A stretch of DNA of 62,850 nucleotides, the filler included, from Nemertoderma westbladi (taxonomy: Eukaryota > Animalia > Xenacoelomorpha): the NCBI GenBank assembly GCA_032718475.1. It is 4 parts of 4 records of this genome, joined end to end, with 100 filler letters (N's around TTAATTAATTAA, not from the genome) between each part and the next. Parts side by side here need not be neighbours in the genome. Positions count along the whole stretch, not along the records: positions 1 to 21,802 come from JAUCBJ010002352.1; 3 more parts are not named here. The stretch is one strand, 5' to 3'. Positions within the stretch are counted from its first letter, which is position 1; each line of letters starts with the position of its first letter. Of the stretch, positions 4,232 to 48,021 are shown in pieces. The notes under the pieces were generated by a model. It was not told the DNA's origin. It worked only from the letters and a program-made list of their open reading frames with translations, and did not search any database. A program made the position numbers and the translations under genes.

Positions 4232-6787
4232 GGAGAGATGGAACCCTTAGATTTTTTTTTATACAATCGCCTTTTTATCAAATGCGCCGTTTTGGTCCTA
4301 AAACACAAGGAGTTAACTAAACGCAATGAGTTAAAAATAAACACAAGGAGTTACAGTAACTAAATACAATGAGTTAAAAAAAACACAAGGAGTTAACTAA
4401 TTACAATGAGTTAAAAAAACACAAGGAGTTAGTTAACTAAACACAATGAGTTAAAAAAAACAGAAGGAGTTACAGTAACTAAACACAATGAGTTAAAAAT
4501 AAACACAAGGAGTTACAGTAACTAAATACAATGAGTTAAAAAAAACACAAGGAGTTAACTAAACACAATGAGTTAAAAAAAACATAAGGAGTTAACTAAA
4601 CACAATGAGTTAAAAAAAACACAAGGAGTTAACTAAACACAGTGAGTTTAAAAAAAAAAACACAAGGAGTTAACTAAACACAATGAGTTAAAAAAAACAT
4701 AAGGAGTTAACTAAACACAATGAGTTAAAAAAAAACACAAGGAGTTAACTAAACACAATGAGTTAAAAATAAACACAAGGAGTTACAGTAACTAAATACA
4801 ATGAGTTAAAAAAAACACAAGGAGTTAACTAAACACAATGAGTTAAAAAAAACACAAGGAGTTAACTAAACACAATGAGTTAAAAAAAACACAAGGAGTT
4901 AACTAAACACAGTGAGTTTAAAAAAAACACAAGGAGTTAACTAAACACAATGAGTTTAAAAAAACATAAGGAATTAACTAAACACAATGAGTTAAAAATA
5001 AACACAAGCAGTTACAGTAACTAAATACAATGAGTTAAAAAAAACACAAGGAGTTAACTAAACACAGTGAGTTAAAAAAACACAATGAGTTAACTAAACA
5101 CAATGAGTTAAAAAAAACACAAGGAGTAACTAAACACAGTGAGTTTTAAAAAAAACACAAGGAGTTAACTAAACACAATGAGTTAAAAAAAACATAAGGA
5201 GTTAACTAAACACAATGAGTTAAAAATAAACACAAGGAGTTACAGTAACTAAATACAATGAGTTAAAAAAAAACACAAGTAGTTAACTAATTACAATGAG
5301 TTAAAAAAACACAAGGAGTTAGTTAACTAAACACAATGAGTTAAAAAAAACACAAGGAGTTAACTAAACACAATGAGTTAAAAAAAACACAAGGAGTTAA
5401 CTAAACACAATGAGTTAAAAAAAACACAAGGTGTTAACTAAACACAATGAGTTAAAAATAAACACAAGGAGTTACAGTAACTAAATACAATGAGTTAAAA
5501 AAAACGCAAGGAGTTAACTAAACACAGTGAGTTTAAAAAAAACACAAGGAGTTAACTAAACACAATGAGTTAAAATAAACACAAGGAGTTAACTAAACAC
5601 AATGAGTTAAAAATAAACACAAGGAGTTACAGTAACTAAATACAATGAGTTAAAAAAAACACAAGGAGTTAACTAAACACAGTGAGTTTAAAAAAAAACA
5701 CAAGGAGTTAACTAAACACAATGAGTTAAAAAAAACACAAGGAGTTAACTAAACACAATGAGTTAAAAAAAACCCAAGGTGTTAACTAAACACAATGAGT
5801 TAAAAAAAAACACAACGAGTTACAGCAACTAAATACAATGAGTTAAAAAAAACACAAGGAGTTAACTAAACACAGTGAGTTTAAAAAAAAACACAAGGAG
5901 TTAACTAAACACAATGAGTTAAAAAAAACACAAGGAGTTAACTAAACACAATGAGTTAAAAATAAACACAAGGAGTTACAGTAACTAAATACAATGAGTT
6001 AAAAAAAACACAAGGAGTTAACTAATTACAATGAGCTAAAAAAACACAAGGAGTTAACTAAACACAATGAGTTAAAAAAAACACAAGGAGTTAACTAAAC
6101 ACAATGAGTTAAAAATAAACACAAGGAGTTACAGTAACTAAATACAATGAGTTAAAAAAAACACAAGGAGTTAACTAAACACAGTGAGTTTAAAAAAAAA
6201 CACAAGGAGTTAACTAAACACAATGAGTTAAAAAAAACACAAGGAGTTAACTAAACACAATGAGTTAAAAATAAACACAAGGAGTTACAGTAACTAAATA
6301 CAATGAGTTAAAAAAAACACAAGGAGTTAACTAATTACAATGAGTTTAATAAACACAAGGAGTTAACTAAACACAATGAGTTAAAAAAAACACAATGAGT
6401 TAACTAAACACAGTGAGTTTAAAAAAAAACACAAGGAGTTAACTAAACACAATGAGTTAAAAAAACACAAGGAGTTAACTAAACACTATGAGTTAAAAAA
6501 TACACAAGGAGTTAACTAAACACAATTGAGTTAAAAAAACACAAGGAGTTAACTAAATACAACCAGTCATTTTTTCGAATGTAAACTAAAACTTTCACTA
6601 TGGGGGTTTTCCTGGTCCGTGATTTCAGTTCCGACGCCAGTTACGATTGACAGATTGTAATCAGAGATTCAAACGGTTTTGGCTTATGATATGGCTTTAA
6701 AGTGTCAAAATCTATAAGTTACGGAAAATTGTGATCATAATCAACTAAAAATATTTTTTTGAAAAATATTAAGGGTTCCATCTCGTC
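4232..6787. mobile_element. Non-autonomous TIR element carrying an internal satellite
   Basis: GAGATGGAACCCTTA near 4235 and its reverse complement TAAGGGTTCCATCTC near 6770. TTAA on the left, CTAA/TAAA on the right. Confidence 0.55.
4300..6562. repeat. Tandem satellite of about 37-43 bp with dimeric substructure (ACACAAGGAGTTAACTAA / ACACAATGAGTTAAAAAA)
   Basis: Directly visible. An ACAGTA-insertion variant recurs. Confidence 0.97.
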
Positions 6788-8341: not shown

Positions 8342-8904
8342 AATGGTGTTTGTTTTATAATGATTTTGGTTTTTTTTTATAATTTATACTTTTTCAGAAC
8401 AACTACATTATCAATCACTGCTGCCTAAGAGCGACGTAAACCTGAGACTTCAAAAACTTTCGGTAAACCTGGGTATGATTTACAATGCCAGGAATCCAAT
8501 CATTAGTTACTACTACTTAGTGTATGAGTGATCGTGAAACTTCCGAGTTTAGTGACCCAAGCTACTGGTCTCACCGAAGCGACGGTTTCATAAAAGGCTG
8601 ATTAAAAGAAAGAAACTAGCTCATGAGGAACAGATAGTTTTAAATAAACTCAATATAGCAGAAACAAAACCATGGACCCTGTTTAATGAGTTTAAAGCTC
8701 CTGCAGTCGCTCTAATTGAGAGAACCTCTGAGGTAATCGAATGATCCACATACTGTAATATGGGAGAGTCCCCATCTACAACAGCGGAGGAGCGCAAACT
8801 TGATGATGGTTTAACACTCTGATAACAGAAGAAGAATTAGCTGAAGCTGTGCAAAACTCCTACAAAAAGAAAGCTAGAGGCCCAGACGCATCTATAATGA
8901 ACAC

Positions 8905-10094
8905 GCATTAACGAACATAATGATCTGGCTGTTATCTTTGTTGACTTCTTCAAGGCCTTTGATTCAGTCTCTCGCTCACGTATGTTCAGCATACTTTCAT
9001 TATATGGGATTCCTGATGAAATTATTGCAGCAATCAGATCAGTATACGATGGTTCGACAACATTTGTGTCTACTGTTGACGGTGACACAGAACCATTTGA
9101 AGTGTTATGGGGCGTCCTCCAAGGAGACACACTTGCACCATTCTTGTTCATTATTGTGGTTGACTATGTTCTACGCATGTCCTTAGATCATCATAATGAT
9201 GATGGGGTGATGATAACTCCACCTACTGGCTCCAGAAGTCGAGGAAATCCTGCCAAGTACCTAACTGATCTAGACTTTGCTGATGACTTAGGAGTACTCT
9301 CAGAATCATTAGAGGGAGCCCAACGGCTCCTCAGCTCATTAGAACATGCTGCTTCTAGTGTTGGTCTTTTTATTAACTCCAGAAAGACCAAAATTCTGAC
9401 AGTTAACTTAGAAAGTCCTCAGCAAGTCTCTGATCGGATGAGCATAAGCTCAAAGGATGGTATGCTTGAGCATGTGGACGACTTCTGTTACCTGGGATCA
9501 TGGATCCGGAAGTCAGGTGAAGACCTTCGAATACGTAAGGGAAAGGCAAGGGCAGCCTTGAATAGGCTTTCCAGGATTTGGAAGTCACCGAGAATTAATC
9601 GGAAACTTAAGGTCCGATTATTTAGAGCAGCAGTAGTTCCAGTACTCCTCTACGGGAGTCCATGCTGGGCTCTAACTGCTGAGGACACCAAATCTCTGGA
9701 TGGCACATTCACAAGAATGCTACGCCGGGTTCATTGTGTCAAGTACAATGCACACATCTCCAACCAGACACTATATAACATTGGAGGTGTCTCATTGGTT
9801 CCCCCAAGCTTGACACTAGAACAAAATCGCCTCCGCTTTGCAGGACATTGCTTTCGCCGTGAGGACCAGCCAGTGCATAATCTTGTACTTTGGCAGCCTC
9901 ATGGAGTGAATAAGCATGGTGGACAGCCCATGACTTTCTTGAGACGCATCTTAAAGGACACTGTCCTTGAAGATGCGGATGATCTAGCAAATGTCATGGG
10001 TGATAGGGAGTTGTGGCGGTGCAATTTTGTTGACAAGCCGGCACAGCATTCTTAAAAATGCAGCTGCAATGCAGCATGCCGATCCTAGTAGTAG
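8905..10094 (+). mobile_element. 5'-truncated RTE-clade non-LTR retrotransposon with 12-bp TSD
   Basis: TSD TATAATGAACAC at 8893-8904 and 10095-10106, (TAG)n tail, RT ORF inside. Confidence 0.85.
8982..10055 (+). CDS. RTE-type reverse transcriptase, C-terminal part
   Basis: Motifs DFFKAFDS (just upstream), GVLQGDTLAPFLF, DLDFADD, FCYLGS, LLYGSPCW, RLRFAGH. Confidence 0.9.
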   Translation: MFSILSLYGIPDEIIAAIRSVYDGSTTFVSTVDGDTEPFEVLWGVLQGDTLAPFLFIIVVDYVLRMSLDHHNDDGVMITPPTGSRSRGNPAKYLTDLDFADDLGVLSESLEGAQRLLSSLEHAASSVGLFINSRKTKILTVNLESPQQVSDRMSISSKDGMLEHVDDFCYLGSWIRKSGEDLRIRKGKARAALNRLSRIWKSPRINRKLKVRLFRAAVVPVLLYGSPCWALTAEDTKSLDGTFTRMLRRVHCVKYNAHISNQTLYNIGGVSLVPPSLTLEQNRLRFAGHCFRREDQPVHNLVLWQPHGVNKHGGQPMTFLRRILKDTVLEDADDLANVMGDRELWRCNFVDKPAQHS

Positions 10095-15829: not shown

Positions 15830-15940
15830 TTAATGAGATTGTATGAAATTTCAAACAGAAATAGTTTAAACTCTAGCCTCCTTACTGGGTGAATCATAAT
15901 TTTTATTATTAATATATCAAACGACCCTATTGGGGCTCGA

Positions 15941-15984
15941 ACCTGGTACCTAGGTTTCAAACTTCCTGTTATCATCAGCCGGGT
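15941..15984 (-). ncRNA. Minimal type I hammerhead ribozyme, copy A
   Basis: Minus strand ACCCGG-CTGATGA-TAACAGGAAGTTT-GAAA-CCTAGG-TA-CCAGGT, with palindromic stem III. A box upstream and B box overlapping the 3' end. Confidence 0.65.
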
Positions 15985-16086
15985 GTGTGTACTGAGCTAC
16001 AAGATCGGATGAAGATTTCGCTATGGAGTGGGATATCATATTTAGGCCAACTACTTCTCCATCCAATCTGGTAGCTCAGTACACAC

Positions 16087-16130
16087 ACCCCGCTGATGAT
16101 AACTGGAACTTTGAAACCTAGATACCGGGT
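16087..16130 (+). ncRNA. Minimal type I hammerhead ribozyme, copy B (degenerate)
   Basis: ACCCCG-CTGATGA-TAACTGGAACTTT-GAAA-CCTAGA-TA-CCGGGT. A box TAGCTCAGT at 16072. Confidence 0.6.
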
Positions 16131-18673
16131 TTGAGCGCAAATAGGGCCGTTTGATATATTTCGCTATGGAGAGCATTATCATATTGTCCTATTACATTAT
16201 ATATAAACTTTTATTATTGCTTTCATTCTTTAGCTAAAAGCACTTAAAAAAAATTATCACTGTCGATATTTTACCAGCCGAATTGAAGTAACCTTATGGC
16301 AACTGGCTGGTACCACCAGTGTAGCAGTCTACTGCTCTAGCATACCGGCGGACTGGCAGACCGGTACTATCTGACTATACCAGTATACGGCTGTACGGTA
16401 CACTATACTACATATTAAGCCTATCAGCATATTCCGGCTGATCGGTACCATATGCCAGTCAGATAGTAGGCTAACTAGAAAATACAGCAAGACTGCGACA
16501 GACTGTAGCAGCAATTTTAAATCTTGCCTATTGTTAATTTTTCGTACTATGACGATCACACACCAGACGTCAGAAATAAGATGAAAAGCCTAATCTTGAT
16601 TGTCTGGTATAAAGCGGCGTATGTGATAGTCTGTTGTTTGCTGGTTAAGCTGTTTAGTATTTCCCACAACGCACAATGATTCCATCAAATACAGTAAGAC
16701 AGGCAGGCAGATAGGAGAAAAGTAATAATTATCTGACTGACCGAAACTGAAATCTGACTGTATATCTGTATAATAATGCAGTAATGCGAATATATATCAT
16801 ATAGGCATGAAATTATGTACTGATGTATGTGTGGTACGAAAAATACTGGCGGCACTGCAGTAGTAACCTATCAACACGGTACACTACTGGTTACCAGACA
16901 ATACTGAAAACACTGAAGCTTGGTAGTATGCTTCAGATGCGGGAATAGCGTCGCTAGAGGGCGAGTGATTTCCACACCCTATTGAATTGTTTATTCATAA
17001 TGGAACTCCGCGATTTCTTGGAGGTGTTCTGGAATGCCTGTCGATACCTCCACAAAATCAGAGTGTTATTCTTCACAATGGCCTCTACTACATTTAGACT
17101 ATAGGGACTGCATCTACAACGATATTTTGATGGAACGACAGCTAGCTATTCCTTCCAGGACATCTAAGCCAAGGAAATTCATAATCTTGAAATTTCAATG
17201 AATTCCACCTTCAAACATTTCGAATCATTAATATTTGTAAAGAAGGTGGATCACAATCTATCAAGCTCTCTACTGTCCCATTTTTCCGGCCAATCTAATA
17301 TGAGATGCTCCTCGCACAGAGACTGTCTTCTGACACATCAACGCCTCTCAAACGAGTGAGTCTCTCTGCTCTATCTCCAACTGTAATCAAAGGGCGAGAT
17401 GGCGCTGTCCTTGGGGTCTTCCCTTTGTACACTGCCGTACAGGTTTGTGCTTCAAACATGGGAAGGAACAACTTAAGACAGGGCAGGATGTCCATATACA
17501 ACGTAATACAACTCCCCATGTTGATGACGTTATCCCCGATGGCAACATTGCAGATAGAGAGTCACCAGTCGCCGGTGAGGATCCATTGAATATATTCCTC
17601 GATGAGGATAATGAAGATGACCCAGAGAGGGGCTTTGACCACATTGATTTCAGTATGGGGGTTCTTGGGTGTAATGAGATAATGGATGCTGATAAGTGAC
17701 CATGGAACTCTATTAGCAAGGATGGATCAAATCCCCATCTATGATGTTAATCATTCCTCCCATATCCATCTACTCCTCAACAACGAACTGGGTGTGCTCC
17801 GTCACCATCACCAACCCCCAAATAATGCCACTTTTAATAGACTGATGCACCACATCATCTCCCTCAGCCGTGATGGAACTGTACCACTAACATACCCCGA
17901 TGGCATTCTCTATCCGACTCTGTTCTACTGCTCTAAGTTTAATTCGGTAGTTGGTGCAATGCCATCCATTATGTACAGTAGTAAAACGGACACCAAAAGA
18001 GGTCTGGCCAGTCTGGAAGACCACCTATCCATTCGACTTAGGGACAACACCATTCCCACATCCACTACGTTGTCATATATCTACGTTGTCAAAATATCCT
18101 TCGCATTTTCAACTCTGTTGAACAAACAACTATCAGTAAATTCTCCAACATTGGTTTTAAAACTGAGGTTGGAGTTCATGGTTGACACCAAGGATGTTGG
18201 CTATTTTTACCCAGAGAACAAGCTCAACTTTGATGAAATCGACGCGTGTCATAAACTAAATGAACTTGCAGCCCTAACCAAGGATGGAGTTTGGGATTAT
18301 TTTGTCACCCTTACATGCAATGATACTGAGACTCCTGGTGTAGCTCCCCTCTACAATGCCATCATCGACAGGTGTGCAGAACAACTGGAGGGGCATTTTG
18401 TCCTGTTACTCCGTGCTTGGCATAGCACCATGACTCATGTTATGGAGTGGATTATTAACAGTCCACAGCACCCACTAGGACACCCACGGAATTACTTCTG
18501 GCGCTATGAGTTTCAGGACCTGAATGCCCTGGGTAATAAACCACATGTCCATATGGGGATAACTTTACATCCAGAGGCCAAGTCGGACACACTCAGCTGA
18601 CTTTAGAGGGATTGTGATATTAATATGAAAACAATAAAATAGGACATGGGGTCTTATTCCCTCAGATAAGAGT

Positions 18674-18741
18674 TTCGTGGCACACTGGTGATGAGGAGAA
18701 CCACGAATCCCAGGGTTCAGTGTTTAAATCTCCGAAACCCT
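18674..18741 (+). ncRNA. Permuted hammerhead copy 1 (core mutated CTGATGA>GTGATGA)
   Basis: Same layout as copy 2 with a C3G change and a truncated 5' helix. Confidence 0.6.
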
Positions 18742-19319
18742 TTTATTTTTATAAAATTTATTACTTAGACTTACCTTTTCGGCGGACAAAATGTCCTATA
18801 TTTTTCGTAATTTATGGGATAGCCTATTTTGTGCAATACATATGGTTTGGTGTAATTTTTCTTGTGGTAGTTGGGTTGGGTTATGTAGCACTAAAATCGA
18901 TTTGGTATTTTGTTTTTTGATGGGCCTTAGTGCCTGAGTACTAACAGTGGCCCAAGTGGCCCTAAATGCTAGGTAGTATCTGAGGGAATAAGACCCCATG
19001 TCCTATTTTATTGTTTTCATATTAATATCTCAATCCCTCTAAAGTCGTGGTTGTCAAACATCATATAATTATATATTTACAGGGGTATTTCCTGACATCT
19101 GCGCAATTTTGTTTAAAAATCTGATCATTTATCTGTAAATACCGGTAGGTGCTAATGGGGGTTGGTTGCATTCAGTGGGAAATCATGTTTATGCATTTGG
19201 GGCTGATGGTAACATACATTGGGGGTGGGTGGTTTCAACTCTGTTTGGTGGTACGGTAGGATTTCTAATTTATTGGTCATTGTCTTAATTTAGTGGTGCA
19301 GTTTTGTTAGGGTAGGGGT

Positions 19320-19391
19320 GGGGTTCGTGGCACACTGCTGATGAGGAGAACCACGAATCCCAGGGTTCAGTGTTTAAATCTCCGAAACCCT
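19320..19391 (+). ncRNA. Non-circularly permuted hammerhead ribozyme, copy 2 (intact)
   Basis: ACACTG-CTGATGA-GGAGA ... AGGGT-T-CAGTGT ... TCTCC-GAAA-CCCT. All three stems are perfectly complementary. Extra helix GGGGTTCGTGG/CCACGAATCCC. Confidence 0.8.
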
Positions 19392-19990
19392 TTTATTTTT
19401 ATAAAATTTATTACTTAGACTTACCTTTTCGGCGGACAAAATGTCCTATATTTTTCGTAATTTATGGGATAGCCTATTTTGTGCAATACTTACCGGAACC
19501 TGTAGTTACTGTATGGTTTGGTGTAATTTTTCTTATGGTAGTTGGGTTGGGTTATGTAGCACTAAAATCGATTTGGTATTTTGTTTTTTGATGGGCCTTA
19601 GTGCCTGAGTACTAACAGTGGCCCAAGTGGCCCTAAATGCTAGGTAGTATCTGAGGGAATAAGACCCCATGTCCTATTTTATTGTTTTCATATTAATATC
19701 ACAATCCCTCTAAAGTCGTGGTTGTCAAACATCATATAATTATATATTTACAGGGGTATTTCCTGACATCTGCGCAATTTTGTTTAAAAATCTGATCATT
19801 TATCTGTACATACCGGCAGGTGCTAATTGGGGTTGGTTGCATTCAGTGGGAAATCATGTTTATGCATTTGGGGCTGATGGTAACATACATTGGGGGTGGG
19901 TGGTTTCAACTCTGTTTGGTGGTACGGTAGGATTTCTAATTTATTGGTCATTGTCTTAATTTAGTGGTGCAGTTTTGTTAGGGTAGGGGT

Positions 19991-20062
19991 GGGGTTCGTG
20001 GCACACTGCTGATGAGGAGAACCACGAATCCCAGGGTTCAGTGTTTAAATCTCCGAAACCCT
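19991..20062 (+). ncRNA. Non-circularly permuted hammerhead ribozyme, copy 3 (intact)
   Basis: Identical to copy 2. Confidence 0.8.
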
Positions 20063-20661
20063 TTTATTTTTATAAAATTTATTACTTAGACTTACCTTTT
20101 CGGCGGACAAAATGTCCTATATTTTTCGTAATTTATGGGATAGCCTATTTTGTGCAATACTTACCGGAACCTGTAGTTACTGTATGGTTTGGTGTAATTT
20201 TTCTTGTGGTAGTTGGGTTGGGTTATGTAGCACTAAAATCGATTTGGTATTTTGTTTTTTGATGGGCCTTAGTGCCTGAGTACTAACAGTGGCCCAAGTG
20301 GCCCTAAATGCTAGGTAGTATCTGAGGGAATAAGACCCCATGTCCTATTTTATTGTTTTCATATTAATATCACAATCCCTCTAAAGTCGTGGTTGTCAAA
20401 CATCATATAATTATATATTTACAGGGGTATTTCCTGACATCTGCGCAATTTTGTTTAAAAATCTGATCATTTATCTGTACATACCGGTAGGTGCTAATTG
20501 GGGTTGGTTGCATTCAGTGGGAAATCACGTTTATGCATTTGGGGCTGATGGTAACATACATTGGGGGTGGGTGGTTTCAACTCTGTTTGGTGGTACGGTA
20601 GGATTTCTAATTTATTGGTCATTGTCTTAATTTAGTGGTGCAGTTTTGTTAGGGTAGGGGT

Positions 20662-20733
20662 GGGGTTCGTGGCACACTGCTGATGAGGAGAACCACAAAT
20701 CCCAGGGTTCAGTATTTAAATCTCCAAAACCCT
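20662..20733 (+). ncRNA. Permuted hammerhead copy 4 (GAAA>AAAA plus stem mismatches)
   Basis: G12A change, CAGTGT>CAGTAT, CCACG>CCACA. Confidence 0.6.
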
Positions 20734-21801
20734 TTTATTTTTATAAAATTTATTACTTAGACTTACCTTTTCGGCGGACAAAATGTCCTATATTTTTCGT
20801 AATTTATGGGATAGCCTATTTTGTACAATACTTACCGGAACCTGTAGTTACTGTATGGTTTGGTGTAATTTTTCTTGTGGTAGTTGGGTTGGGTTATGTA
20901 GCACTAAAATCGATTTGGTATTTTGTTTTTTGATGGGCCTTAGTGCCTGAGTACTAATAGTGGCCCAAGTGGCCCTAAATGCTAGGTAGTATCTGAGGGA
21001 ATAAGACCCCATGTCCTATTTTATTGTTTTCATATTAACACTCAGCCGAGTCTGCTGCCAATCAAAGAGTTTGTTTAACGAATCTTTTGGCACATACTTT
21101 GGGATCCTTGTTTGTGAAGGGGTATTAGACATCAAGAAATCCCCAAGTTCCTTAACCACCTCCAATATTTACAGACCCACAACTGCCATTCCAGTGGGGG
21201 GCGCTGTAAGAAGTATACAGACAGCTCGGGGAAACCAAAATGCCACTACACCCGGTATCCAGAACATAGTGTGCCCTTTTTTAAGGAACAAGTGGGGTTG
21301 TACCAGCAGTCCACATTGTGCAAATCTGTGATTACAGAATGCAGAAAGCCTATCTTCTGAAATATGAGGTTGGTAAAGAAGAACACACGAAATATATTCT
21401 CAAAGAATCACCTGAACCAGGTAAGTTTGTTGGCCATCGACCAATTGTGAACGAGAAGATCACTGGAGACAGGATTGCTGAGGAGAAGAGGACAAAGAAG
21501 GACAAAGAATTCACTACGAGAAATATCGGGGTACCTGAACTTGTGTTTCACTGCCTTAATCTGGAGTACTTCTATATGAATGTACAATTCCTACACATAC
21601 AAAGTGTAATTCCCGAGAATAGAAGTGGGTTTATCCATAAATAAGAAAAACAAACTTCTTATAGATAATGATCAACTCAAACCCATAGTTGAGAGAGCTG
21701 CACTTCCAGTTGCCAGACAGTTCACACCATCTCAGGAACTGCTCATTAAAGATTATATAAACAGCTAATATTGCGCAGACTACATTACTAAGTTTAACCT
21801 G

Positions 21802-21902
21802 ANNNNNNNNNNNNNNNNNNNNNNNNNNNNNNNNNNNNNNNNNNNNTTAATTAATTAANNNNNNNNNNNNNNNNNNNNNNNNNNNNNNNNNNNNNNNNNN
21901 NN
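21802..21902. other. Assembly gap with artificial six-frame-stop spacer TTAATTAATTAA
   Basis: N-run / TTAATTAATTAA / N-run, the same at all three gaps. Confidence 0.95.
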
Positions 21903-21913
21903 CGACGGATAGG

Positions 21914-24532
21914 ATGGTCGGAACGGGAACTCCTACGGTGGAGTACGCGAATCCGTTGGAACAAACACCCTACTCTGCCACGACGGATAGGATGGTCGGA
22001 ACGGGAACTACTACGGTGGAGTACGCAAGTCCATTGGAACAACCATTGGACAGTCCATTGGGTGGTATAGGCACAATTACAGATAAATGTAAACCTAAGG
22101 GTCCCAAAATCAGTAGAAATTTTCGGGGCATTGTTGATGTATTATCTTTTATAAAAAGATTTTACAATCGCCGAACGCTAACTCTAGTAGAAACGTGGTT
22201 GGACTCTATTAAGAATCTAAGTGCTCTCAAGGGTAATAAATATTTTTTGGTGACATGTTATAACGAGAGATTAACACCACAGAGTTTAAGACTGAAAGCC
22301 CCTAGACAATTTAACACAAGTATTAGTAAGGAAGCTGAATTTAAATATGTAAAATTGGCTATAGCTAAATGTAATGCGGACATTATTGTGCTTATCGAAC
22401 AGATTGATAATTTAAAGCTAGCCTTAAAAGGAAGTTACCTTAATTTTGATGTGTTTAATAAGGTAGACAGTTTTATGGTTAGTAATTTAGATGTCTTATA
22501 CAGTAAAGAAATAATACGTTATAACACTAAATTAAACTGGATGCGGGAAAAACCCCACAATAAACAAAGCCCCAGTGTAAAAACTACTGTACAGGATACT
22601 GTATTGAATCTAAGTAGTAGACTTATTAGTAAAGTAGAATTATCTGTGCTGTCCCTAGGACTTAATTTTGAACCCAGACTGTGGAAAATGCCAGTAGCCG
22701 AGTTTATAGTGTCTATTGAGGATGGCGCTAAACAGTTAGGTGATACGAAAGGAGCGGCGTTCAGACATGAGGCCTTGTCCATTTTACAGAGTCACAAAGA
22801 TACACCTAGAATAAAAAATTTGTCAAAGGATGAATGGGCCGCGGTCAAAAGTCTTGCGAGTGACTCCTCTATAATCATACGACCAGCAGACAAAGGTAAT
22901 AAAACTGTAGTCATGGATAGAGATACCTATCATAACAAGATGAGGGAAATATTAGATGACTCTAGCCAATATTCTTTAATCCATAATAACCCAGTAAGGA
23001 TGTATGAACGGCGAGTAAATTCTACACTAAGGGATTTAGTTAACTCGGGTAATATGAAACACTCTTTACGTACAAAGTTAGGATCCCATTACTCACAACT
23101 ACCTTATACTTATGGGAACCCCAAAATCCACAAGACAGAAGTACCGCTTCGAAACATTGTGGCTTTCCAGAACGCCCCTAGCGGTAATATTGCTACATAT
23201 ATAGCTAAAATATTAGCGTTTTATTTACCTCAAGGTGAATCCTATATTAGAAACTCAGCCGAATTGACGGATAAAATTAAATCTATAACGGTAGATAATC
23301 GGTTTATACAATGTAGTTTTGATATTGTGAATATGTTCGGCAACATCCCTAGGGATGAAGCTAGAGACGTAGTTATGGATCTAATACTACAGGACTCAGA
23401 GTTTAGTGAACGCACAGACATATCTGTAAATACTTTTGGTACTCTATTAGATTTAGTACTAAACCAAACTGCTTTCCAATACGAAGACCAGTACTTTAAA
23501 CAGATAAGGGGTTTACCTATGGGTAATCCAGTGTCCCCTGTCATGAGTTGTATCTTTATGTATAGTTTGGAGCGGAAAGCTAGAGGTATAGGTTTTTTAC
23601 CAGACTTGTGGTATCGATATGTCGATGACACTTGGACTGTTGTAGATCTTAACCATGTTGAAGCCCTATTAGACAATTTAAATTCGTTACATCAGGATAT
23701 TAAATTTACAGTTGAATACCAAAACGTTAAGGGACAGTTACCTTTTTTGGACGTACTAATTGGTTTAGTTGATGGTAAATTCTCGACTGACGTTTATCAA
23801 AAACCTACCCACTCCAACAGGTACTTAAACTTTTCATCCAACCACCACCCACGGGTGAAACAAAGCGTATGCAGTGCATTATTTTTTAGATCCAATCGTA
23901 TTTGTTCTACTGTAGATGCACGAAATCGCACTCAAACCAAACTGGCTAACACATTAGCTAATAATGGTTATCCTACCAGAATTATTCATAGTACAAAGAG
24001 ACGTATCAATAGACAATTCGACCAACCTAAACCTGTACCACCCAAGGACAAAATTGACATAAGACTTGGCTTACCATATGAGGAAGGCCTCACTGAAAGT
24101 TTGGAAAAAATCTGCGCTCTCTATGGGGTGGCAACTTACTTTGTACCGGGGCAAAAGTTGGCATCCTTTCTGCTAAAAGGTCACAAACCGGTGACTGATC
24201 ATAGGGGCGTAATATATAGGATCCCTTGCGAATGTGGGCTAACATATATAGGTGAAACTAAATACAGTATGGATGTCCGTTTAACGCAACATGACAGTGA
24301 TGTAAGACACGGTAGATTCAAAGCATCGGATCTAGCAGCTCACCATGTGGATACTGGTCATGTGCCAAGTTTTGAGTTAGCAGAAGTCATAGGTAGACAA
24401 ACCCAGTTACGTAGGAGAAAAATCTTAGAAAGTCTTAATATCCGATCATTGGGGGACAAAGCTATTAATAAAAGGACATCGGTGGACGTTGACCATTTAA
24501 GTGTAGGGGCATTACAAAAATATATGAACTAA
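21914..24532 (+). CDS. Penelope-like element (Penelope/Poseidon type) RT plus GIY-YIG endonuclease, uninterrupted
   Basis: LSLGLNF, RPADKG, YGNPKIHK, SFDIVNMF, GLPMGNPVSP, RYVDD, FLDV, YQKPTH, GVIYRIPCECGLTYIGET. The true start may lie in the gap. Confidence 0.95.
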   Translation: MVGTGTPTVEYANPLEQTPYSATTDRMVGTGTTTVEYASPLEQPLDSPLGGIGTITDKCKPKGPKISRNFRGIVDVLSFIKRFYNRRTLTLVETWLDSIKNLSALKGNKYFLVTCYNERLTPQSLRLKAPRQFNTSISKEAEFKYVKLAIAKCNADIIVLIEQIDNLKLALKGSYLNFDVFNKVDSFMVSNLDVLYSKEIIRYNTKLNWMREKPHNKQSPSVKTTVQDTVLNLSSRLISKVELSVLSLGLNFEPRLWKMPVAEFIVSIEDGAKQLGDTKGAAFRHEALSILQSHKDTPRIKNLSKDEWAAVKSLASDSSIIIRPADKGNKTVVMDRDTYHNKMREILDDSSQYSLIHNNPVRMYERRVNSTLRDLVNSGNMKHSLRTKLGSHYSQLPYTYGNPKIHKTEVPLRNIVAFQNAPSGNIATYIAKILAFYLPQGESYIRNSAELTDKIKSITVDNRFIQCSFDIVNMFGNIPRDEARDVVMDLILQDSEFSERTDISVNTFGTLLDLVLNQTAFQYEDQYFKQIRGLPMGNPVSPVMSCIFMYSLERKARGIGFLPDLWYRYVDDTWTVVDLNHVEALLDNLNSLHQDIKFTVEYQNVKGQLPFLDVLIGLVDGKFSTDVYQKPTHSNRYLNFSSNHHPRVKQSVCSALFFRSNRICSTVDARNRTQTKLANTLANNGYPTRIIHSTKRRINRQFDQPKPVPPKDKIDIRLGLPYEEGLTESLEKICALYGVATYFVPGQKLASFLLKGHKPVTDHRGVIYRIPCECGLTYIGETKYSMDVRLTQHDSDVRHGRFKASDLAAHHVDTGHVPSFELAEVIGRQTQLRRRKILESLNIRSLGDKAINKRTSVDVDHLSVGALQKYMN

Positions 24533-24604
24533 TATTTTGTAGTACATTGTGTGTATGTGTGGGTGAATGTGTATTTTTTCTTTCTGTGATTGTGCCAATT
24601 GTTT

Positions 24605-25090
24605 GTGGGGCGAGCCACGAAGTTGGCGGAGCCTTAGCGAATTGACACTGTTAGGGGGTGGGTCAATTTATGCAAATAGTTGTCGTCGTTGTCGTCATCG
24701 TCGTCGTCGTCGTTATGATTTTGACATGCTAATAACTTTGTCGGATTTAAAGCTGCCAAGTTGAAAATTTGTAGGTATCAATATGAGCAAAAGTTGAGAT
24801 TTTTGAGAGACTTTCAGACACCATCAGTGCAATGGTCTCCCGCTAGAGGGCCACATGTCTAAACATTAAATGCCCTCCCATTTCTTTGCTTTTAATCCGT
24901 TTAAGCTGAAACTTGGCAGATATGTATTAGACCATTAGCTGTGACTTTCAAAGGAGGCGAATCCATCTGCAGTTCTCCAGTCTGCCGCTAGAGGGCCAAC
25001 GTGACTATTTGCATAAATTGACCTACCCCCTAACAGTGTCAATTCGCTAAGGCTCTGCCAACTTCGTGCTGCGCGAAGTCCCCACTTCGT
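24605..25090 (+). mobile_element. HINE/DINE-like (Helentron-associated) or MITE element, copy 1
   Basis: About 65-bp inverted repeats, (GTC)n microsatellite, 3' hairpin CGAAG-TCCCCA-CTTCG. Near-identical to 45406-45912. Confidence 0.85.
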
Positions 25091-25721
25091 GTAATATACT
25101 GTATGTTTAGTACTGTAGTTGTGGTCTCATGTAGTGTTTTTTATATTATACTGCTTTTGTGCTATAATATCCGTTAAGTTACTGTATGGTGGTTATTTGT
25201 CTTGTCAGTCAGTGCATTGGTTATTTTCAGTATTTTGCAGTATTACAACTTAGGTTAGTACTGGGTTAGGTATTATTATACAGTTTTGATTTTAGGTACC
25301 TTACTGTGACTATAGTTAGGCCAGTTTGCAGGACTGTGTTATTATTCCATTATTATTATTATGCGATTAGGATTACATACATATCTCACTTTCAATATAT
25401 CTATCTTCTATTAGTTAGTTCTGTTTTGTTATTGACAATGAATTATAATATTAATTCGAAATATATTTACGATATCGCTGTATTGCTCCGTTTTCTTTAA
25501 TATTATTAATTTTGCAACTATCTACACTAACTTGAATTACATTATTTATCATAGGTTCCATTATGTTTTTAAAGATAAGCATTGGTCCAGCAAACGCATA
25601 ACTTGCACAACATTGGTTACTGTTAAATAACTGCAATTATTGGTTAATCTACCTTGAGCAGATACAATTCAATCATAGTGGTCAATTCAATTAAGTTGAA
25701 AATTGGCACAAAAAACAATTT

Positions 25722-31305: not shown

Positions 31306-32728
31306 CGCAATAATTTTTATTGTCCGTTTTTATCCTTTTTTTGTCCTTTTTTTTTATTTTTTATGTCCTCCAAAAGTCTAATGTTATTCTGTATTTTAGT
31401 ACCAGTACCGGCACCGGTACTGCTATAGGCCTACTGTGTAGCCTACCATTTAAATACGGTAATGGGAGGCCTACTGGCCTACCGGTTGTGCTAATAAATT
31501 TTAAATAATTGATAGGCAAAACTGGATTGCAGGATTGTGGAAAATGTTAATATATCTTTGACATAATTTAGGCCTATTACTGTAATAGTTTTATAATCAA
31601 TAATGGATCATGACTACTGTCTGAGTAGTGTTACGGATAGCGGCACCACTACTTCCAACAGCACAGAAGGCCCGCCTCTGTAATCTGCCCCTTTCCCTCA
31701 ATTAGCTAAATGATCGTTTATTGTTTTGGTTAGATAATCCCGCCTCTGTAACCTGCTCCTTTCCCTCAATTGTTAATGTTATCGTTTATTGTTTTGGTTA
31801 GAAAATCCCGCCTCTGTAACCTGCTCCTTTCTCTCAATTGGTAATGTTATCGTTTATTGTTTTGGTTAGAAAATCCCGTCTCTGTAACCTGCTCCTTTCC
31901 CTCAATTAGGTAAATGATCGGTTATTGTTTTGGTTAGAAAATCCCGTCTCTGTAACCTGCTCCTTTCCCTGATTTGGTAAAGTGACTGTTTATTGTTTTG
32001 ATTAGAAAGGCCCGCCTCTGTAACCTGCCCCTTTCCCTCAATTAGCTAAATGATCGTTTATTGTTTTGGTTAGATAATCCCGCCTCTGTAACCTGTTCCT
32101 TTCCCTCAATTGGTAATGTTATCGTTTATTGTTTTGGTTAGAAAATCCCGCCTCTGTAACCTGCTCCTTTCCCTGATTTGGTAAAGTGACTGTTTATTGT
32201 TTCGGTTAGAAAATCCGGCCTTAACCTGCTCCTTTCCCTCAATTAGTTAAATGATTGTTTATTGTTTTGGTTAGAAAATCCCGTCTCTGTAACCTGCTCC
32301 TTTCCCTGATTTGGTAAAGTGAATGTTTATTGTTTTGGTTAGAAAACTCGGCCTTAACCTGCTCCTTTCCATCAATTGGTAATTGTTTTTGCCTATAAAA
32401 TGAGTGTTTTTCTACGTCATGTGGTAATCGATTATCGACAACAACCACAAACTATTAAATATAGAGTCTTTTTACCACAGGCGCATATGGAAATCTATCT
32501 CATAGTCTATAAATCATGGAATCATGGAATGTTTTGGCACAGGCATAGTGAAATCAACTGTCTGACAGTCCAGAAATCAGCAGTCTGACAGTTTGAAGAA
32601 ATACATACATAAAAAGTCATTAAAATGACAATAAAAGTCATTAAATGGACAACAGAAGTCATTATGCATAATTCGTAAAAAAAAAATGACAAAAAAAGTC
32701 AAATAAAAGGACATAAAAAATCACTGCC
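31306..32728 (-). mobile_element. MULE-like non-autonomous element with 9-bp TSD and internal ~68-bp tandem repeats
   Basis: TSD GATCTGATC at 31297-31305 and 32729-32737. Imperfect TIRs CGCAATAATTTTT / AAAAATCACTGCC. Confidence 0.85.
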
Positions 32729-37019: not shown

Positions 37020-40000
37020 GGCAGTGATTTTTTATGTCCTTTTATTTGACTTTTTTTGTCATTTTTTTTACGAATTATGCATAATGACTTTTGTTGTCCT
37101 TTTAATGACTTTTATTGTCCTTTTAATGACTTTTTATGTATGTATTTCTTTAAACTGTCAGACTGCTGATTTCTGGACTGTCAGACAGCTGATTTCACTA
37201 TGCCTGTGCCAAAACATTCCATGATTCCATGATTTATAGACTATGAGATAGATTTCCATATGCGCCTGTGGTAAAAAGACTCTATATTTAATAGTTTGTG
37301 GTTGTTGTCGATAATCGATTACCACATGACGTAGCAAAACATTCATTTTATAGCCAAAAACAATTACCAATTGTTGGAAAGGAGCAGGTTAATGCCGAGT
37401 TTTCTAACCAAAACAATACACAGTCACTTTACCAAATCAAGGAAAGGAGCAGGTTTACAGAGACGGGATTTTCTAACCAAAACAATGAACGATTAATTAA
37501 CTAATTGAGAGAAAGGAGCAGGTTACTGAGGCGGGATTTTCTAACCAAAACAATAAACGATCACTTAACTTATTGAGGGAAAGGAGCAGGTTACAGAGGT
37601 GGGATTTTCTAACCAAAACAATAAACGATCATTTAACTAATTGAGGGAAAGGGACAGGTTACAGAGGCGGAATTTTCAAACCAAAACAATAAACGATCAT
37701 TTAACTAATTGATGGAAAGGGGCAGGTTACAGAGGCGGGATGTTCTAACCAAAACAATAAACGATCATTTAACTAATTGAGGGAAAGGAGCAGGTTACAG
37801 AGACGGGATTTTCTAACCAAAACAATAAACGATAACATTTACCAATTGAGAGAAAGGAGCAGGTTACAGAGGCGGGATTTTCCAACCAAAACAATAAACG
37901 ATAAGATTACCAATTGAGGGAAAGGAGCAGGTTACAGAGGCGGGATTATCTAACCAAAACAATAAACGATCATTTAACTAATTGAGGGAAAGGGGCAGGT
38001 TACAGAGGCGGGCCTTCTGTGCTGTTGGAAGTAGTGGTGCCGCTATCCGTAACACTACTCAGACAGTAGTCATGATCCATTATTGATTATAAAACTAATA
38101 CAGTAAGGCCTAAATTATGTGAAAGGTATATCCACATTTTCCACAATCCTGCAATCCAGTTTGGCCTATCAATTATTTAAAATTTATTAGCACAACCGGT
38201 AGGCCTACCATTACCGTATTTAAATGGTAGGCTACACAGTAGGCCTATAGCAGTACCGGTGCCGGTACCGGTACTAAAATACAGAAATACCTGCTTTATA
38301 CCTTCATCTGTACATACAATACAGCAAAATAGTGCTATATATACTAATACCGGTACTGATAGCCTGAGAGAACAGCAGTAGAGAAACCGGTAGCATGGAA
38401 CCTAACATTAGACTTTTGGAGGACATAAAAAATAAAAAAAAAGGACAAAGAAAGGATATAACCCTATTAGTACCGGGCTATAAAATGTTGTACAAATACT
38501 GGGGAGGGGTCATATTGACCCCCCCCCCCCCCCCCCCCTCTAAAATCTACAAATATTTACGAAAACGTCTGATTTTTTGTTTGTACGTAGGTATCACTTG
38601 TCTGGATCCGACCGAAAAAAAAAATTTCCGAAAAAATGTACTGGGGTGGTTATATTGCAGCACCAAAATTACAAGTAGTGCACAATTTTCACCAAATTTG
38701 AAAGTTACATTTTCGGCTAATTATTTTTCAATACAGGTTTTCTGGGGTGCAAAATACATTGGAAAATATTAAAAAATGATATGATTACTATAAATGGCTG
38801 TTTAGTCCTCTCTGCGTAGGAAAAAAATGAAAAAAACAAGTAACCAGCACTTTTCAGTTAGAACACAAAATTTGTAATTCACTTATACGATGCTATAAAT
38901 TCACATTTTCAGGTTTTCGAGGGCGCTGATTCTAATGGAATACATTTCTAATATGCCAGATCATTGCTACTTGTATTTTTCGGCGTAATTTGGCAAATTT
39001 TGGTGCTAGCACCAAATTTCGTACCCATCACCAAAAAGTACAAGTTTGCGATGTCCAGTGCTGTTTTTATTGATTCCATCGGATTCAGGACCCTTATAAA
39101 CCCGTATAACGTAAGAAACAAGATGATACTATCTCCTGATCAATTTGCTTATTTTCCAAAATTTGGTGCTGGCACAACAATTTTCACCAACCGGCGAAAA
39201 ATACAAGTTTGAAAACTCTTATGAAATTTTTACTGATTCCATTGAATTCAGAACCCTCACAAACCCGTATAACGCAAGAAACAAGGTGACACAATCAATT
39301 GATATATTTGATGGTTTTCAAAATTTGGTGCTAGCACCAAATTTTGCACCCACATCCGAAAAATACAAGTTTGAGATGTCTAGATCGATAATTATATTTT
39401 CCATTGAATTCAGAACAGCCATAAACCTCTAAAACGCAAAAAATAAATTGTCACAAGCAATTTTATCTATTGAATGGATTTTCAAAATTTCGTGCTAGCA
39501 CCAAAATTTGCACACAGCACCGAAAAAATACAAGTTTGATACGCTTGGTGCAACTCGTATATATTTCTTCGAATCCAGAAACCCAAAAAACCCCAATTGC
39601 GTAAAAAACAAGTTTCAAACGATCAATTTACAAAATTGACTTATTTCGAAATTTGGTGCTGGCACCAAAATTTGGCACCCACCGAAAAAAACAAGTTTGA
39701 AATTTCTAAATCAATTTATATGAATTCCATCAAATTTCTAACACCAAAAAACCGGTGTAAATCAAAAATAGAGATGTTACAATTCATATTTAATGAAATG
39801 TAATTTTCAAAAAACGTCTCAAAAAAAGTGCCAAAAGTAGGGTTAAAAAATGGTGCTATAACTCGAAAAGTACCCAATATTTTTGAAAACGGTTTTCACT
39901 ACTAGGAAGACAATAGATTTTTAGGAAAAGTCATAAAATTTCAGATTCCCAACTGCGTTTGTTTCGGAATTATAATAAAAAAACCACGGGGGGGGGGTCA

Positions 40001-43543: not shown

Positions 43544-45405
43544 TAACATAACCTATAAATATACTGCTAAGGTGCTAACTTATCTATAATTTGTGAAAAA
43601 ACTACGTAGAGAGGATAAATATGTATTTGCATAAGAAATTATTGCGATTGACTAAGAAAGGCATCTAATGAGCGTTTAAAAATAGACAAATTTTCTGATT
43701 GACGTGTACAGAGGTTGGTATTGAGTTCCAGATTTCTGGGGCTTTGATTTTGATTGATTGCCTGGCTGTACAGTACGTAAACGCCTACGTGGTATGATAG
43801 GCCTACAGTTCAGGTCAGTTACAGCACGTGTTCGGTGATTGTGTGTGTTTGATATCAAGGTTAGAAGTGTTGGGAAAATATCATTAGGCAATATGTTGTG
43901 CAAGTGTTTATAACAAAGTAGTCCGACTTGTTTAATGTAAGTTGATCGTATTGTAAGTGGATTGAAGTTGACGAAGCCCCTATGAATGATAATGTTTTTT
44001 GCCTTTTGTTGAAGATTATGCAACATTCTATAAGTTGTATTTGGCTTATCATTGTATTGTATTTTTTTCGCTTTCTCTTGCATCTATAGTGTTTGTTTGG
44101 GTGTTCTCTGTTATTTGTAAAGTCTGTGTATTTATTTTATGTATGATGTAGCTGCCCAAACTGCGGTGCAATAATATAAGTAGGGGCTGATCATTGTGTT
44201 ATAAGGAGTTGCTGCCACTTGTGGTGTAATGAAATGTTTTATTTTATTGATAATGCCGATGTTTCGACTTATTTTATTGCGTAGGTATTCGTAATGGTAT
44301 TTCCATGTAAGGTGTTCATCTATAAGAACTCCGAGAAACTTAATAACTGTATTTCTCTGGATAACAATATTGTTGATCACAATATCCATTGGTTGGTTGA
44401 GTTTAAGTGGTTTGTTCGTGGTGCGAAATATAATGTAGCTAGTTTTTTTAGTGTTTAATGATAGTCTATTTAATTGAAACCATTTAGTTAAATTAAGGAG
44501 GTCGTCGTTTGTTTCAGTGATAAGTTTCTCGAGGTCCTTCCCTGTTGTTAGTAAATTAGTATCATCTGCAAACAGAATAAATTTTGCTAGTTTACACGTA
44601 TTAGTTAAGTCATTACAATAAATTATGAACAGTAGTGGATTAAGGAGTGTACCTTGAGGCAGTCCAATTGTAATTTGTTTTCGTTCTGATTTACCCTTCC
44701 CTACTGTCACATATCCGATAAGTAGTTTGTAATCCAGGCCAACGCAGTTTCAGTAATTCCGTAACGTTGTAATTTTTCGAGTAATATTCTGTGGTTTACA
44801 GTGTCAAACGCTTTCGATAAATCAATTGAGACACCTGTTGCATATTCCCCCGAATCTAGAGCATTTGTAATATGGTCTAGTAGTGTAAGTAGAGCTTGTT
44901 GAGTTGATCTCTTATTTCTAAAGCCAAATTGTGTGGAGAGAGTATGGCTTCTCTTATTAAGTAATCTGTGAGTTCTGTGTGAACAATTTTTTCAAGTATT
45001 TTGGAAAAATATGCTAATACGGATATTGGTCTGTAATTCTCAACAAGTGTCGGATTATCAGTTTTAAATATTGGGGTAATACGTGCAATTTTCATTTTAT
45101 TGGGGAAATTTCCACTACATAGGGATATGTTAACTATATACGCAAGGGGCTCAGCGATAAGAGATATTGTTGGTTGGACGGTTGATGAGGCTAGTTCGTC
45201 ACATCCAGGGCTTGTTCTTTTGTTTAGTTTATTTGATGTTTGAATAATTTGAGATGGTGTGATAGTGTTAAATGTTGAAAGTTTCTTTGTTGGTCCGGTT
45301 TTTGGTAAATAATCTAGTGGTGAACCTTGAGTCGTGGGGATTTTTTGTTCAAGTTTTGATCCAATTGTGATGAAATGGTTGTTAAATACTGTGGCTATAT
45401 CTGTT

Positions 45406-45912
45406 GTGGGGCGAGCCACGAAGTTGGCGGAGCCTTAGCGAATTGACACTGTTAGGGGGTGGGTCAATTTATGCAAATAGTTGTCGTCGTCGTTGTCGTC
45501 GTCGTCGTCGTTGTCGTCGTCGTCGTCGTCGTCGTTACGATTTTGACATGCTAATAACTTTGTCGGATTTAAAGCTGCCAAGTTGAAAATTTGTAGGTAT
45601 CAATATGAGCAAAAGTTGAGATTTTTGAGAGACTTTCAGACACCATCAGTGCAATGGTCTCCCGCTAGAGGGCCACATGTCTAAACATTAAATGCCCTCC
45701 CATTTCTTTGCTTTTAATCCGTTTAAGCTGAAACTTGGCAGATATGTATTAGACCATTAGCTGTGACTTTCAAAGGAGGCGAATCCATCTGCAGTTCTCC
45801 AGTCTGCCGCTAGAGGGCCAACGTGACTATTTGCATAAATTGACCTACCCCCTAACAGTGTCAATTCGCTAAGGCTCTGCCAACTTCGTGCTGCGCGAAG
45901 TCCCCACTTCGT
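45406..45912 (+). mobile_element. HINE/DINE-like or MITE element, copy 2
   Basis: Near-identical to 24605-25090 apart from a longer (GTC)n. Interrupts the LINE frame TYTDT|TDIATVF. Confidence 0.88.
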
Positions 45913-46656
45913 GTATCTGTGTATGTACGTGTGGCGCTCTTTGCGTTGTTGTGTGTATAAATTGTACCTAGAGCAGACTGATCGTGTGTTCCTTGTGTGG
46001 TTGTTGTTGTTTCTTGTATGATGAGTGACGGTGATGTGTTCTTACGTTGTTTATTGATTAATTGATGGATATTTTTCCACACTGATCTGATATTTTGTTT
46101 TTTAAAATCAAGAACCTTGTTGTAATATTTCTTTTTAGCAGTACGAAGTAGAGCATCTAGTGCGTTTCGGTAATTTTTGAATCGTATTAGTTTTTCGGGA
46201 GTTGGGCAGTGAATGTAGTTGCCATAAAGTCTATCTCTTTTTTTGTTGCATGATGTAGACTGTTTGTTAACCATGGTTTTTGTGGGTTGAGTAATTTGAT
46301 TTGTTAGAGTGGGAAATGCTTATTGTATAGTGTGTGATCAAGAAGATCTAGAAAAGTATCATAAGCAGTATTTGCAGTTGTCATTGAATACACATCAGTC
46401 CAGTTGGTCAATAGTAGCTCTGTTTTAAATTTTTCTTGTTTATTAAGGTCTTTTATTTTTCTTCTGTAGCTGTATTGGCTCGGTGGTTTTTGTTTTGTAA
46501 TGGTGTCAGTTAGTACAAATATTGGTAGGTGATCAGAAACAGGTGAAATCAGTAATCCAGATTTAAGGATTCCATCGGTGTTACTGTAAATGTTATCAAT
46601 TAGAGTGGCAGAGTGATCAGTGATTCGCGTTGGCTTGGATATAGTAATAAATAATG

Positions 46657-47095: not shown

Positions 47096-47530
47096 CAGTG
47101 GCGCAGCCATAGGGGGGGACGGGGGGGACACGTCCCTCCCACTTTTCAGTTAGGGGGGGGACACCATATCATATGTCCCCGGCACTTTTTACACTTTGTA
47201 TATTCAATTTAAAATTCAAATAATCGTAACAAACTCTGATCGGGTATTAAAGTGTAACTATTAACTCCTACGTACATTACAATCCTTCCCAACCCTGTCG
47301 CATATTTCCAAACACCATGAACTGTTTTTGAAAAGTCTGATAATATAAGGTGTATTTTCATATCCCCACAATTTCGTCTTATATTGTTTTGGTTAGAATA
47401 ACTAAAACAAATTTATTGATAATTAAATTTTTTGTTAATTTACCGTGTCGAGATATCAACCCGCCTTCTCTTTCAATCCTTACCTGCTTTATATAGGTAT
47501 CTCAGTCGACATTTTAATCTTATAGAGGGT
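47096..47530 (+). mobile_element. hAT-like element end truncating the LINE
   Basis: CAGTGGCGCAGCCA...GGGGGACACGTCCC type terminus. Confidence 0.45.
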
Positions 47531-47539
47531 TCGTTGGTA

Positions 47540-48021
47540 AGATACTGCTCCGTGGAAATCAGAATGGGTTCCGTAAAGGTCGTGGGAACATGGAGCCCAT
47601 TTTGGCACTTAGAAGGATAATTGAAGAGTTATCAACAAAGAAAGACAGGCATCTGGCTGTTATCTTTGTTGACTTCTTCAAGGCCTTTGATTCAGTCTCT
47701 CGCTCACGTATGTTCAGCATACTTTCATTATATGGGATTCCTGATGAAATTATTGCAGCAATCAGACCAGTAAACGATGGTTCGACAACATTTGTGTCTA
47801 CTGTTGACGGTGACACAGAACCATTTGAAGTGTTATGGGGCGTCCTCCAGGGAGACATACTTGCACCATTCTTGTTCATAATTGTTGTTGACTATGTTCT
47901 ACGCATGTCCTTAGATCATCATAATGATGATGGGGTGATGATAACTCCACCTACTGGCTCCAGAAGTCGAGGAAATCCTGCCAAGTACCTAACTGATCTA
48001 GACTTTGCTGATGACTTAGGA
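47540..48021 (+). pseudogene. Third RTE RT fragment
   Basis: QNGFRKGR, DFFKAFDS, DFADD. 47651-48021 is near-identical to 8923-9293. Confidence 0.9.

Follow-up and report, generated by a model that had tools for sequence, protein, structure and literature searches.

A predicted type-CSG hammerhead ribozyme in a likely Penelope-copied retrozyme of Nemertoderma westbladi

The window analysed here, the whole stretch of 62,850 nucleotides (filler included) from Nemertoderma westbladi (GCA_032718475.1), contains a well-formed type-CSG hammerhead ribozyme motif at 19320-19391 on the plus strand, carried by a 671-bp unit that is repeated in tandem. We regard this unit, with its predicted ribozyme, as a likely non-coding retrozyme that is copied by a Penelope-type reverse transcriptase/endonuclease. 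The parts of this reading are not equally firm. The predicted fold and cleavage of the hammerhead, read from strands and pairings, are held with high confidence, Penelope-type mobilisation of the unit is very probable, and a circular template is somewhat favoured.

The intact copy, in unit 2 of the array, consists of three uninterrupted blocks in the local order C-S-G, which is none of the circular orders CGS, GSC and SCG of types I-III. Block C (19332-19349) comprises a stem I strand, the CUGAUGA core (19338-19344) and a stem II strand, and forms the loop of a hairpin closed by a bridge helix, whose 5′ strand (19320-19330) makes 11 pairs, one of them G-U, with a 3′ strand (19351-19361) that joins stem III without a spacer. 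Block S (19362-19373) provides a stem III strand, H17 at 19367 and the second stem I strand. A 5-nt linker (19374-19378) leads from stem I to stem II and thus to block G (19379-19391), which holds the other stem II strand, G12-A13-A14 and the other stem III strand; all these elements lie on the plus strand. Stem I (19332-19337/19368-19373) has six pairs, stem II (19345-19349/19379-19383) five and stem III (19362-19366/19387-19391) five, all of them Watson-Crick. The core is complete, with CUGAUGA, G12-A13-A14-A15.1, U16.1 and U19367 as H17. By its strands, pairings and core, the sequence is a real, well-formed type-CSG hammerhead for which cleavage is predicted, and by analogy with the published ribozymes CSG-1 and CSG-2 the cut would fall between 19367 and 19368. 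These results bear out the first-pass annotation, made from the sequence alone, which had located the three hammerhead strands, paired them into stems of 6, 5 and 5 bp, and described the additional 11-bp helix with its single G-U and the 5-nt linker.

The same annotation read the motif as a non-circularly permuted, pseudoknotted hammerhead, and this reading is supported, since the same architecture has been published as type CSG (PMC10085705). In that work, Eckert et al. 2023 treat the hammerhead as three blocks, C, S and G, and give names to their six possible orders. Type CSG was represented by five sequences, two of them unique (the similar CSG-1 and CSG-2), which came only from soil metagenome DNA. 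Both cleave in vitro at the expected site, with rates of 0.004 and 0.026 per min, respectively, and a single-copy construct of CSG-2 cleaves almost completely, dimers not being excluded there. The cut proposed after 19367 draws support from this cleavage at the equivalent position. The authors themselves graded the evidence for CSG as weaker, with modest covariation, and in the available text of their paper no RNA is assigned to the genome of a known organism except for one bacterial GCS candidate. Our comparison with the rearranged forms in that paper identifies the motif as type CSG. Neither the rearranged order nor the bridging helix is new: the order is type CSG itself and the helix already appears in its published alignment. 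The novelty lies in the mobile element, with its target duplication, inverted piece, tail and many copies, of which the first-pass annotation gave no account.

We compared the window copy with CSG-1 and CSG-2 by eye, on the three sequences and the printed alignment (PMC10085705). The lengths of stems I to III agree in all three (6/5/5), and the 5-nt linker is letter-for-letter the same as in CSG-2. Against CSG-1 and against CSG-2 alike, 13 of the 23 pairs are changed on both sides, ten are identical and none is broken. The double changes affect four of the six pairs of stem I and three of the five of stem III, with two (CSG-1) or three (CSG-2) of the five in stem II and four (CSG-1) or three (CSG-2) of the seven in the inner bridge. 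This divergent third CSG sequence thus adds covariation in four helices, as judged in a by-eye comparison with two sequences that are similar to each other. Some features differ: H17 is U here but C in CSG-1/2, the inner end of the bridge is C·A in the window and U·G in CSG-1/2, and the bridge, of 11 bp, runs straight into stem III, compared with 8 bp and a 2-nt connector. A zero-spacer junction of bridge and stem III is, according to the authors, not obviously compatible with the crystal structure. In addition, the RNAmotif CSG descriptor, which we re-implemented, fits the window copy only when the spacer between stems II and III is widened to 12 nt from the published limit of 10 nt, a bound that serves searching and does not define the type biologically. 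The setting differs as well: CSG-1/2 come from soil metagenomes with no host or element given in the available text, whereas the window copy sits in a multicopy mobile repeat of a eukaryotic assembly.

We scanned the window for hammerhead blocks in all six strand orders. The motif was found twice, with C3 at 19338 and at 20009, and three further weak matches of 3-4 pairs lay elsewhere. With the bridge left out of the pattern, 114 Mb of sequence simulated by an order-3 Markov model trained on the window contained no match, whatever the order of its strands, whose stems reached 6/5/5, though it did contain 38 weak 4/2/4 CSG matches. Likewise, stems of at least 6/5/5 were absent from 103,265 dinucleotide shuffles of the unit searched on both strands. 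Rfam returned nothing at the gathering score and no hammerhead at E ≤ 5, its one match being an irrelevant rimP (E 4.7); none of its models covers this motif. The motif is present in contigs of four DNA runs, in one of them as a single piece, and is thus not an assembly artefact. A separate inverted repeat at 15911-16160, with arms 81% alike, contains CTGATGA followed by GAAA in its arms but forms no hammerhead stems and was not called as a tRNA.

Scans of sequence collections with a CSG pattern, in collections that contain few animal genomes, yielded no real ribozyme among 37 viral loci, none among 28 metagenome loci (one weak 4/4/3 match was judged to be chance), and none among 135 further loci from prokaryote genomes (120 loci, with 36 of the 64 parts covered) and from another viral set (15), where only weak 3-4/2-5/3-4 matches were seen. 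Since the published CSG contigs were absent from the metagenome scan despite a pattern fitted to them, the metagenome collection is incomplete for CSG. There was no phage match, and a 10-letter core motif had no match in the supplement text of Craig et al., which lists 'half core' cases of Naiad. Within the literature we searched, which left most subscription journals outside, type CSG is named only in PMC10085705, with no placement in a eukaryote or a mobile element; PMC13725137, in the part available, merely cites Eckert et al. 2023. The CSG topology is known, and the divergent sequence and its retrozyme setting are new, as far as we found.

Nested prediction for the circular monomer, which by its nature does not reach stems I and II, gave the bridge and stem III pair probabilities of 0.64-1.0, with 1.0 for the bridge. 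The two helices would form first, as adjacent hairpins with 20-nt loops, and the loops would then kiss through stems I and II to assemble the standard hammerhead core. The stability of the folded monomer is not above that of shuffles (z 0.23). A 91-nt piece folds best, under nested prediction, when a G-rich stretch that lies just upstream, and in which most copies have an A at 19316, is paired to the 3′ strands of stem II and stem III; this argues against easy folding. U1.7 of natural hammerheads is reported to pair in Hoogsteen fashion with an adenine of loop II (PMC11875169); the first linker base here is U1.7, and we would guess that the linker adenines could make such a pair with it.

Could the motif be satellite DNA that matches by chance, or an artefact of assembly? 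The missing Rfam match, the four pattern scans that returned no homologue and the scaffold gaps that lie 800 bp away in the window would fit such an origin. Yet both null models gave zero matches, the lengths of stems I to III and of the linker are identical to those of a validated ribozyme, and contigs of four runs hold the motif, which together make this origin extremely improbable. The first-pass annotation had raised, as an alternative, a canonical type III fold whose cut would follow the GUU further upstream, at 19325; this is just as hard to credit. The upstream strand can indeed form a 5-pair stem III with 19387-19391, but stem I fails after one C-G and one G-U pair followed by two mismatches, the fold must displace an 11-bp helix predicted at probability 1.0, and neither the perfect 6-bp stem I nor the agreement with CSG-1/2 would be accounted for; we rejected it. 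A more serious proposal, which takes in the neighbouring-unit alternative of the first-pass annotation, is that units or molecules exchange halves when they cleave, a bridge hairpin from one kissing a stem III hairpin from another, in SGC order or as a dimer. The two hairpins fold independently, the zero-length connector between bridge and stem III would be avoided, neighbouring units could supply SGC, CGS, SCG and GCS versions with the same stems if loops of up to 700 nt are allowed, and amphibian retrozyme hammerheads act as dimers (PMC7229834). Single-copy constructs of CSG-1/2 nevertheless cleave, although dimers were not excluded (PMC10085705), and folds between units must close loops of about 600 nt. 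Moreover, the bridge, at 11 bp with 0 nt here and 8 bp with 2 nt in CSG-1/2, looks like a conserved reach within one molecule. Half-swapping appears improbable, and the CSG fold within one molecule is the reading that we carry forward. The published type SGC (HRIMA-1 and a variant, PMC10085705) likewise has two pseudoknots, a short linker that connects stem I with stem II and a helix joining the other sides of the stems, and as we read it consists of the same two hairpins in the opposite order. Type-SGC sequences come from metatranscriptome contigs linked to hairpin ribozymes.

The motif is part of a tandem array of about 3.5 units of 671 bp at 18674-21037 on the plus strand. The units differ by 0.4-1.6%, have a GC content of 39%, and join seamlessly at the cut site in all four cases. 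Two of the four ribozyme copies in the window are intact, in the consecutive units 2 and 3, and the copy in unit 3 (19991-20062) is identical to that in unit 2. The copy in unit 1 (18674-18741) has lost the 5′ end of the bridge and carries C3G, the unit itself having a 21-bp deletion; the copy in unit 4 (20662-20733) carries G12A and has lost one pair in stem I and one in the bridge. Over 373 bp of unit 4 (20666-21038), four changes are G-to-A and one is C-to-T, three of the changes lying in the ribozyme and two of the four G-to-A at CpG. Methylation decay or cDNA editing could be the cause, but the numbers are small. Two cuts would release a monomer of 671 nt (19368-20038), which is non-coding, with a longest ATG ORF of 55 codons.

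The array bears the marks of insertion. An inverted 70-bp piece of the unit (18599-18668, minus strand), matching 19648-19717, precedes it and extends 22 bp beyond the forward 3′ end as a tail, and a 9-bp target-site duplication flanks the whole (18589-18597 and 21038-21046). The target is a Helitron gene fragment (17683-18597, plus strand; Pfam Helitron_like_N, E 5.8e-07), whose frame resumes after 21038. The empty site, 18588 joined to 21038 with nine shared letters, was seen in contigs of runs X1 and X3, and these contigs belong to a diverged Helitron copy; two further X3 contigs that cross the junctions of the insertion, by 30 and 24 letters, fell short of a 31-letter rule and were left uncounted. 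A strand change was seen in 11 of the 15 joints listed.

The depth of single contigs over the motif reached 5800 and 4638 in two runs, compared with about 15-20 for contigs that have unique flanks. Depth is not copy number, but an excess of this size suggests hundreds of copies. Of the changes listed for copies in the four runs, G12A alone falls within the motif, with less than 2% of the depth. In the three longest pieces of run X4, none of the 72 nt of the motif was changed against 21 changes in 570 nt elsewhere; about 2.7 would be expected in the motif (P near 0.07 by hand), so this signal is weak. No compensatory changes were seen among the genome's own copies. In run X4 the motif depth was about 370, against 4600-5800 in X2/X3 (window 19283-19431), while contigs with unique flanks had similar depths (15-40); samples that share a species label may differ in copy number. 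Low-depth contigs of runs X1-X3 covering 19328-19420 carry 10-12 differences over the ribozyme, which point to older or diverged subfamilies. Run X5 contributed one 204-nt piece, which may be DNA.

We next consider where copies end. Nine of the 19 loose ends listed, out of 239, were kept as 3′-side ends with at least 30 foreign letters; those set aside were four with 8-11 letters, three in Helitron sequence, two 5′-side ends and one from X5. Together with the window's own two ends, the nine give eight distinct 3′-side positions between 19654 and 19749, that is, 287-382 nt after the cut and within 96 of the 671 nt. Clustering this tight arose in 4 of 500,000 random draws. Most of the examined ends fall at 19690-19749 (plus strand), which we infer to be the zone where reverse transcription starts; no 25 nt of the unit are richer in A+C than the first 25 of this zone. 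Further listed ends at 19420-19432, outside both the zone and the test, are read as diverged copies, most of them resembling the unit's continuation; one may be a true end. Because the ends lie at a distance from the cut, and because units meet at the cut site without a seam, the template would be a circle or an uncut multimer rather than a linear monomer that had been cut and was primed at its end. In work with a purified Poseidon protein, reverse transcription began within the RNA, at two neighbouring AC-rich sites bounding the tail (PMC11167929), and by analogy the cluster of copy ends is in keeping with an internal AC-rich start of this enzyme.

These observations can be assembled into a copying scheme. 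A read-through transcript would be cut once per unit into 671-nt monomers, and ligation would probably close these into circles, a step that has been shown in other retrozymes of animals. A Penelope protein provided in trans would nick the target and begin reverse transcription within the RNA, some 290-380 nt beyond the cut, and synthesis would continue round the circle, or along an uncut multimer, to give seamless tandem copies. Penelope elements are described with this pattern of direct repeats, an inverted 5′ copy, a tail and a duplication of 9 bp (PMC3846280; PMC8557442). Animal retrozyme RNAs are cut to monomers and circularised, probably by tRNA ligase (PMC7229834), and retrozymes appear to derive from the Penelope repeats known as pLTRs (preprint 10.64898/2026.07.22.740005). 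With animal non-LTR retrozymes (PMC7229834; 10.64898/2026.07.22.740005) the unit shares non-coding tandem repeats, one hammerhead in each, low GC, a target duplication longer than 4 bp (9 here) and a length of 671 bp, inside the reported range of 51-972 bp. Those elements are defined and searched by type I hammerheads, and their circular RNA has been shown; the window unit has type CSG. As its hammerhead is CSG and not type I, the unit would work like a non-LTR retrozyme but is a variant rather than a member of the group as defined.

The likeness to the pseudo-LTRs of Penelope and Poseidon (PMC3846280, PMC8557442, PMC11167929) extends to the partial tandem, the inverted 5′ copy, the tail in one copy, the 9-bp duplication, internal 3′ ends near an AC-rich stretch and a hammerhead in the repeat. 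In those elements the tail measures 30-40 bp and the ribozyme is type I or minimal, compared with 22 bp and CSG here, and a protein gene is present. The window unit has none: with no ORF longer than 55 codons it lacks the RT and GIY-YIG gene of an autonomous Penelope-like element. A Penelope/Poseidon-type gene, RT followed by GIY-YIG, does occur at 21851-24532 on the plus strand, 800 bp from the array and across a scaffold gap (21803-21922) in which its 5′ end is lost. Its frame is open, and the protein is 28-36% identical to most of its matches, the named best ones being from echinoderms and insects. We found no hammerhead in its 3′ flank, and the similarity of that flank to the unit is borderline, with a score of 45.5 that 7 of 200 shuffles reached. 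This gene is a possible but unlinked partner of the unit. A copy of a small element interrupts the same 3′ flank (24603-25093); its second copy lies at 45404-45915, the two being 95.5% alike with 65-bp inverted ends.

It may be asked whether the ribozyme, though real, is a passenger, spread through uncut multimers or as the pLTR of a longer Penelope, with cleavage and circles taking no part in copying. The published CSG ribozymes are slow (PMC10085705), insertion by the Poseidon enzyme in vitro is independent of hammerhead cleavage, with mutants inserting normally (PMC11167929), and both the position of the copy ends away from the cut and the reported descent of retrozymes from pLTRs would suit a passenger. 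It also counts against our own reading that eight of nine Xenopus retrozyme dimers did not cleave (preprint 10.64898/2026.07.22.740005). On the other hand, the motif is nearly invariant across copies, the excess of changes outside it in run X4 points the same way, if weakly, all four units show a seamless cut site, an ORF start is absent from the unit, and the flank of the neighbouring Penelope gene is without a hammerhead. On balance we consider the passenger reading unlikely, though it is the strongest of the alternatives weighed here, and prefer that of a retrozyme whose ribozyme would take part in its copying.

The window holds other repeats as well. Two related LINE reverse transcriptase fragments lie at 8901-10055 and 47518-48057, and arrays of a 68-bp unit run in opposite orientations at 31671-32382 and 37369-38012, about 5 kb apart. 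At 57238-61693 on the plus strand there are interrupted gag-pol-like frames with DUF1759, which we take to be a retrotransposon of the BEL/Pao kind.

If the reading of the unit is right, it would give the CSG layout its first known host element and, through a predicted ribozyme in a multicopy mobile setting, a likely job; that setting supplies a probable role for type CSG. We tentatively suggest that an unrecognised lineage of animal Penelope repeats and retrozymes has type CSG as its native ribozyme, that the soil CSG sequences are pieces of such elements from invertebrates, and that a two-hairpin, double-kissing module reads as CSG or SGC according to where the short connector lies in the array or circle. 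If this were true, the lineage would have been missed because searches assume the type I order, and there would be a simple route between two published non-circular forms, CSG and SGC. The unit shows that surveys of retrozymes and Penelope that rely on type I patterns overlook elements. The 72-nt construct (19320-19391) suits the study of doubly pseudoknotted hammerhead folding, for example of the reach between bridge and stem III without a spacer, and the unit bears on whether cleavage or circles matter in Penelope-type copying.
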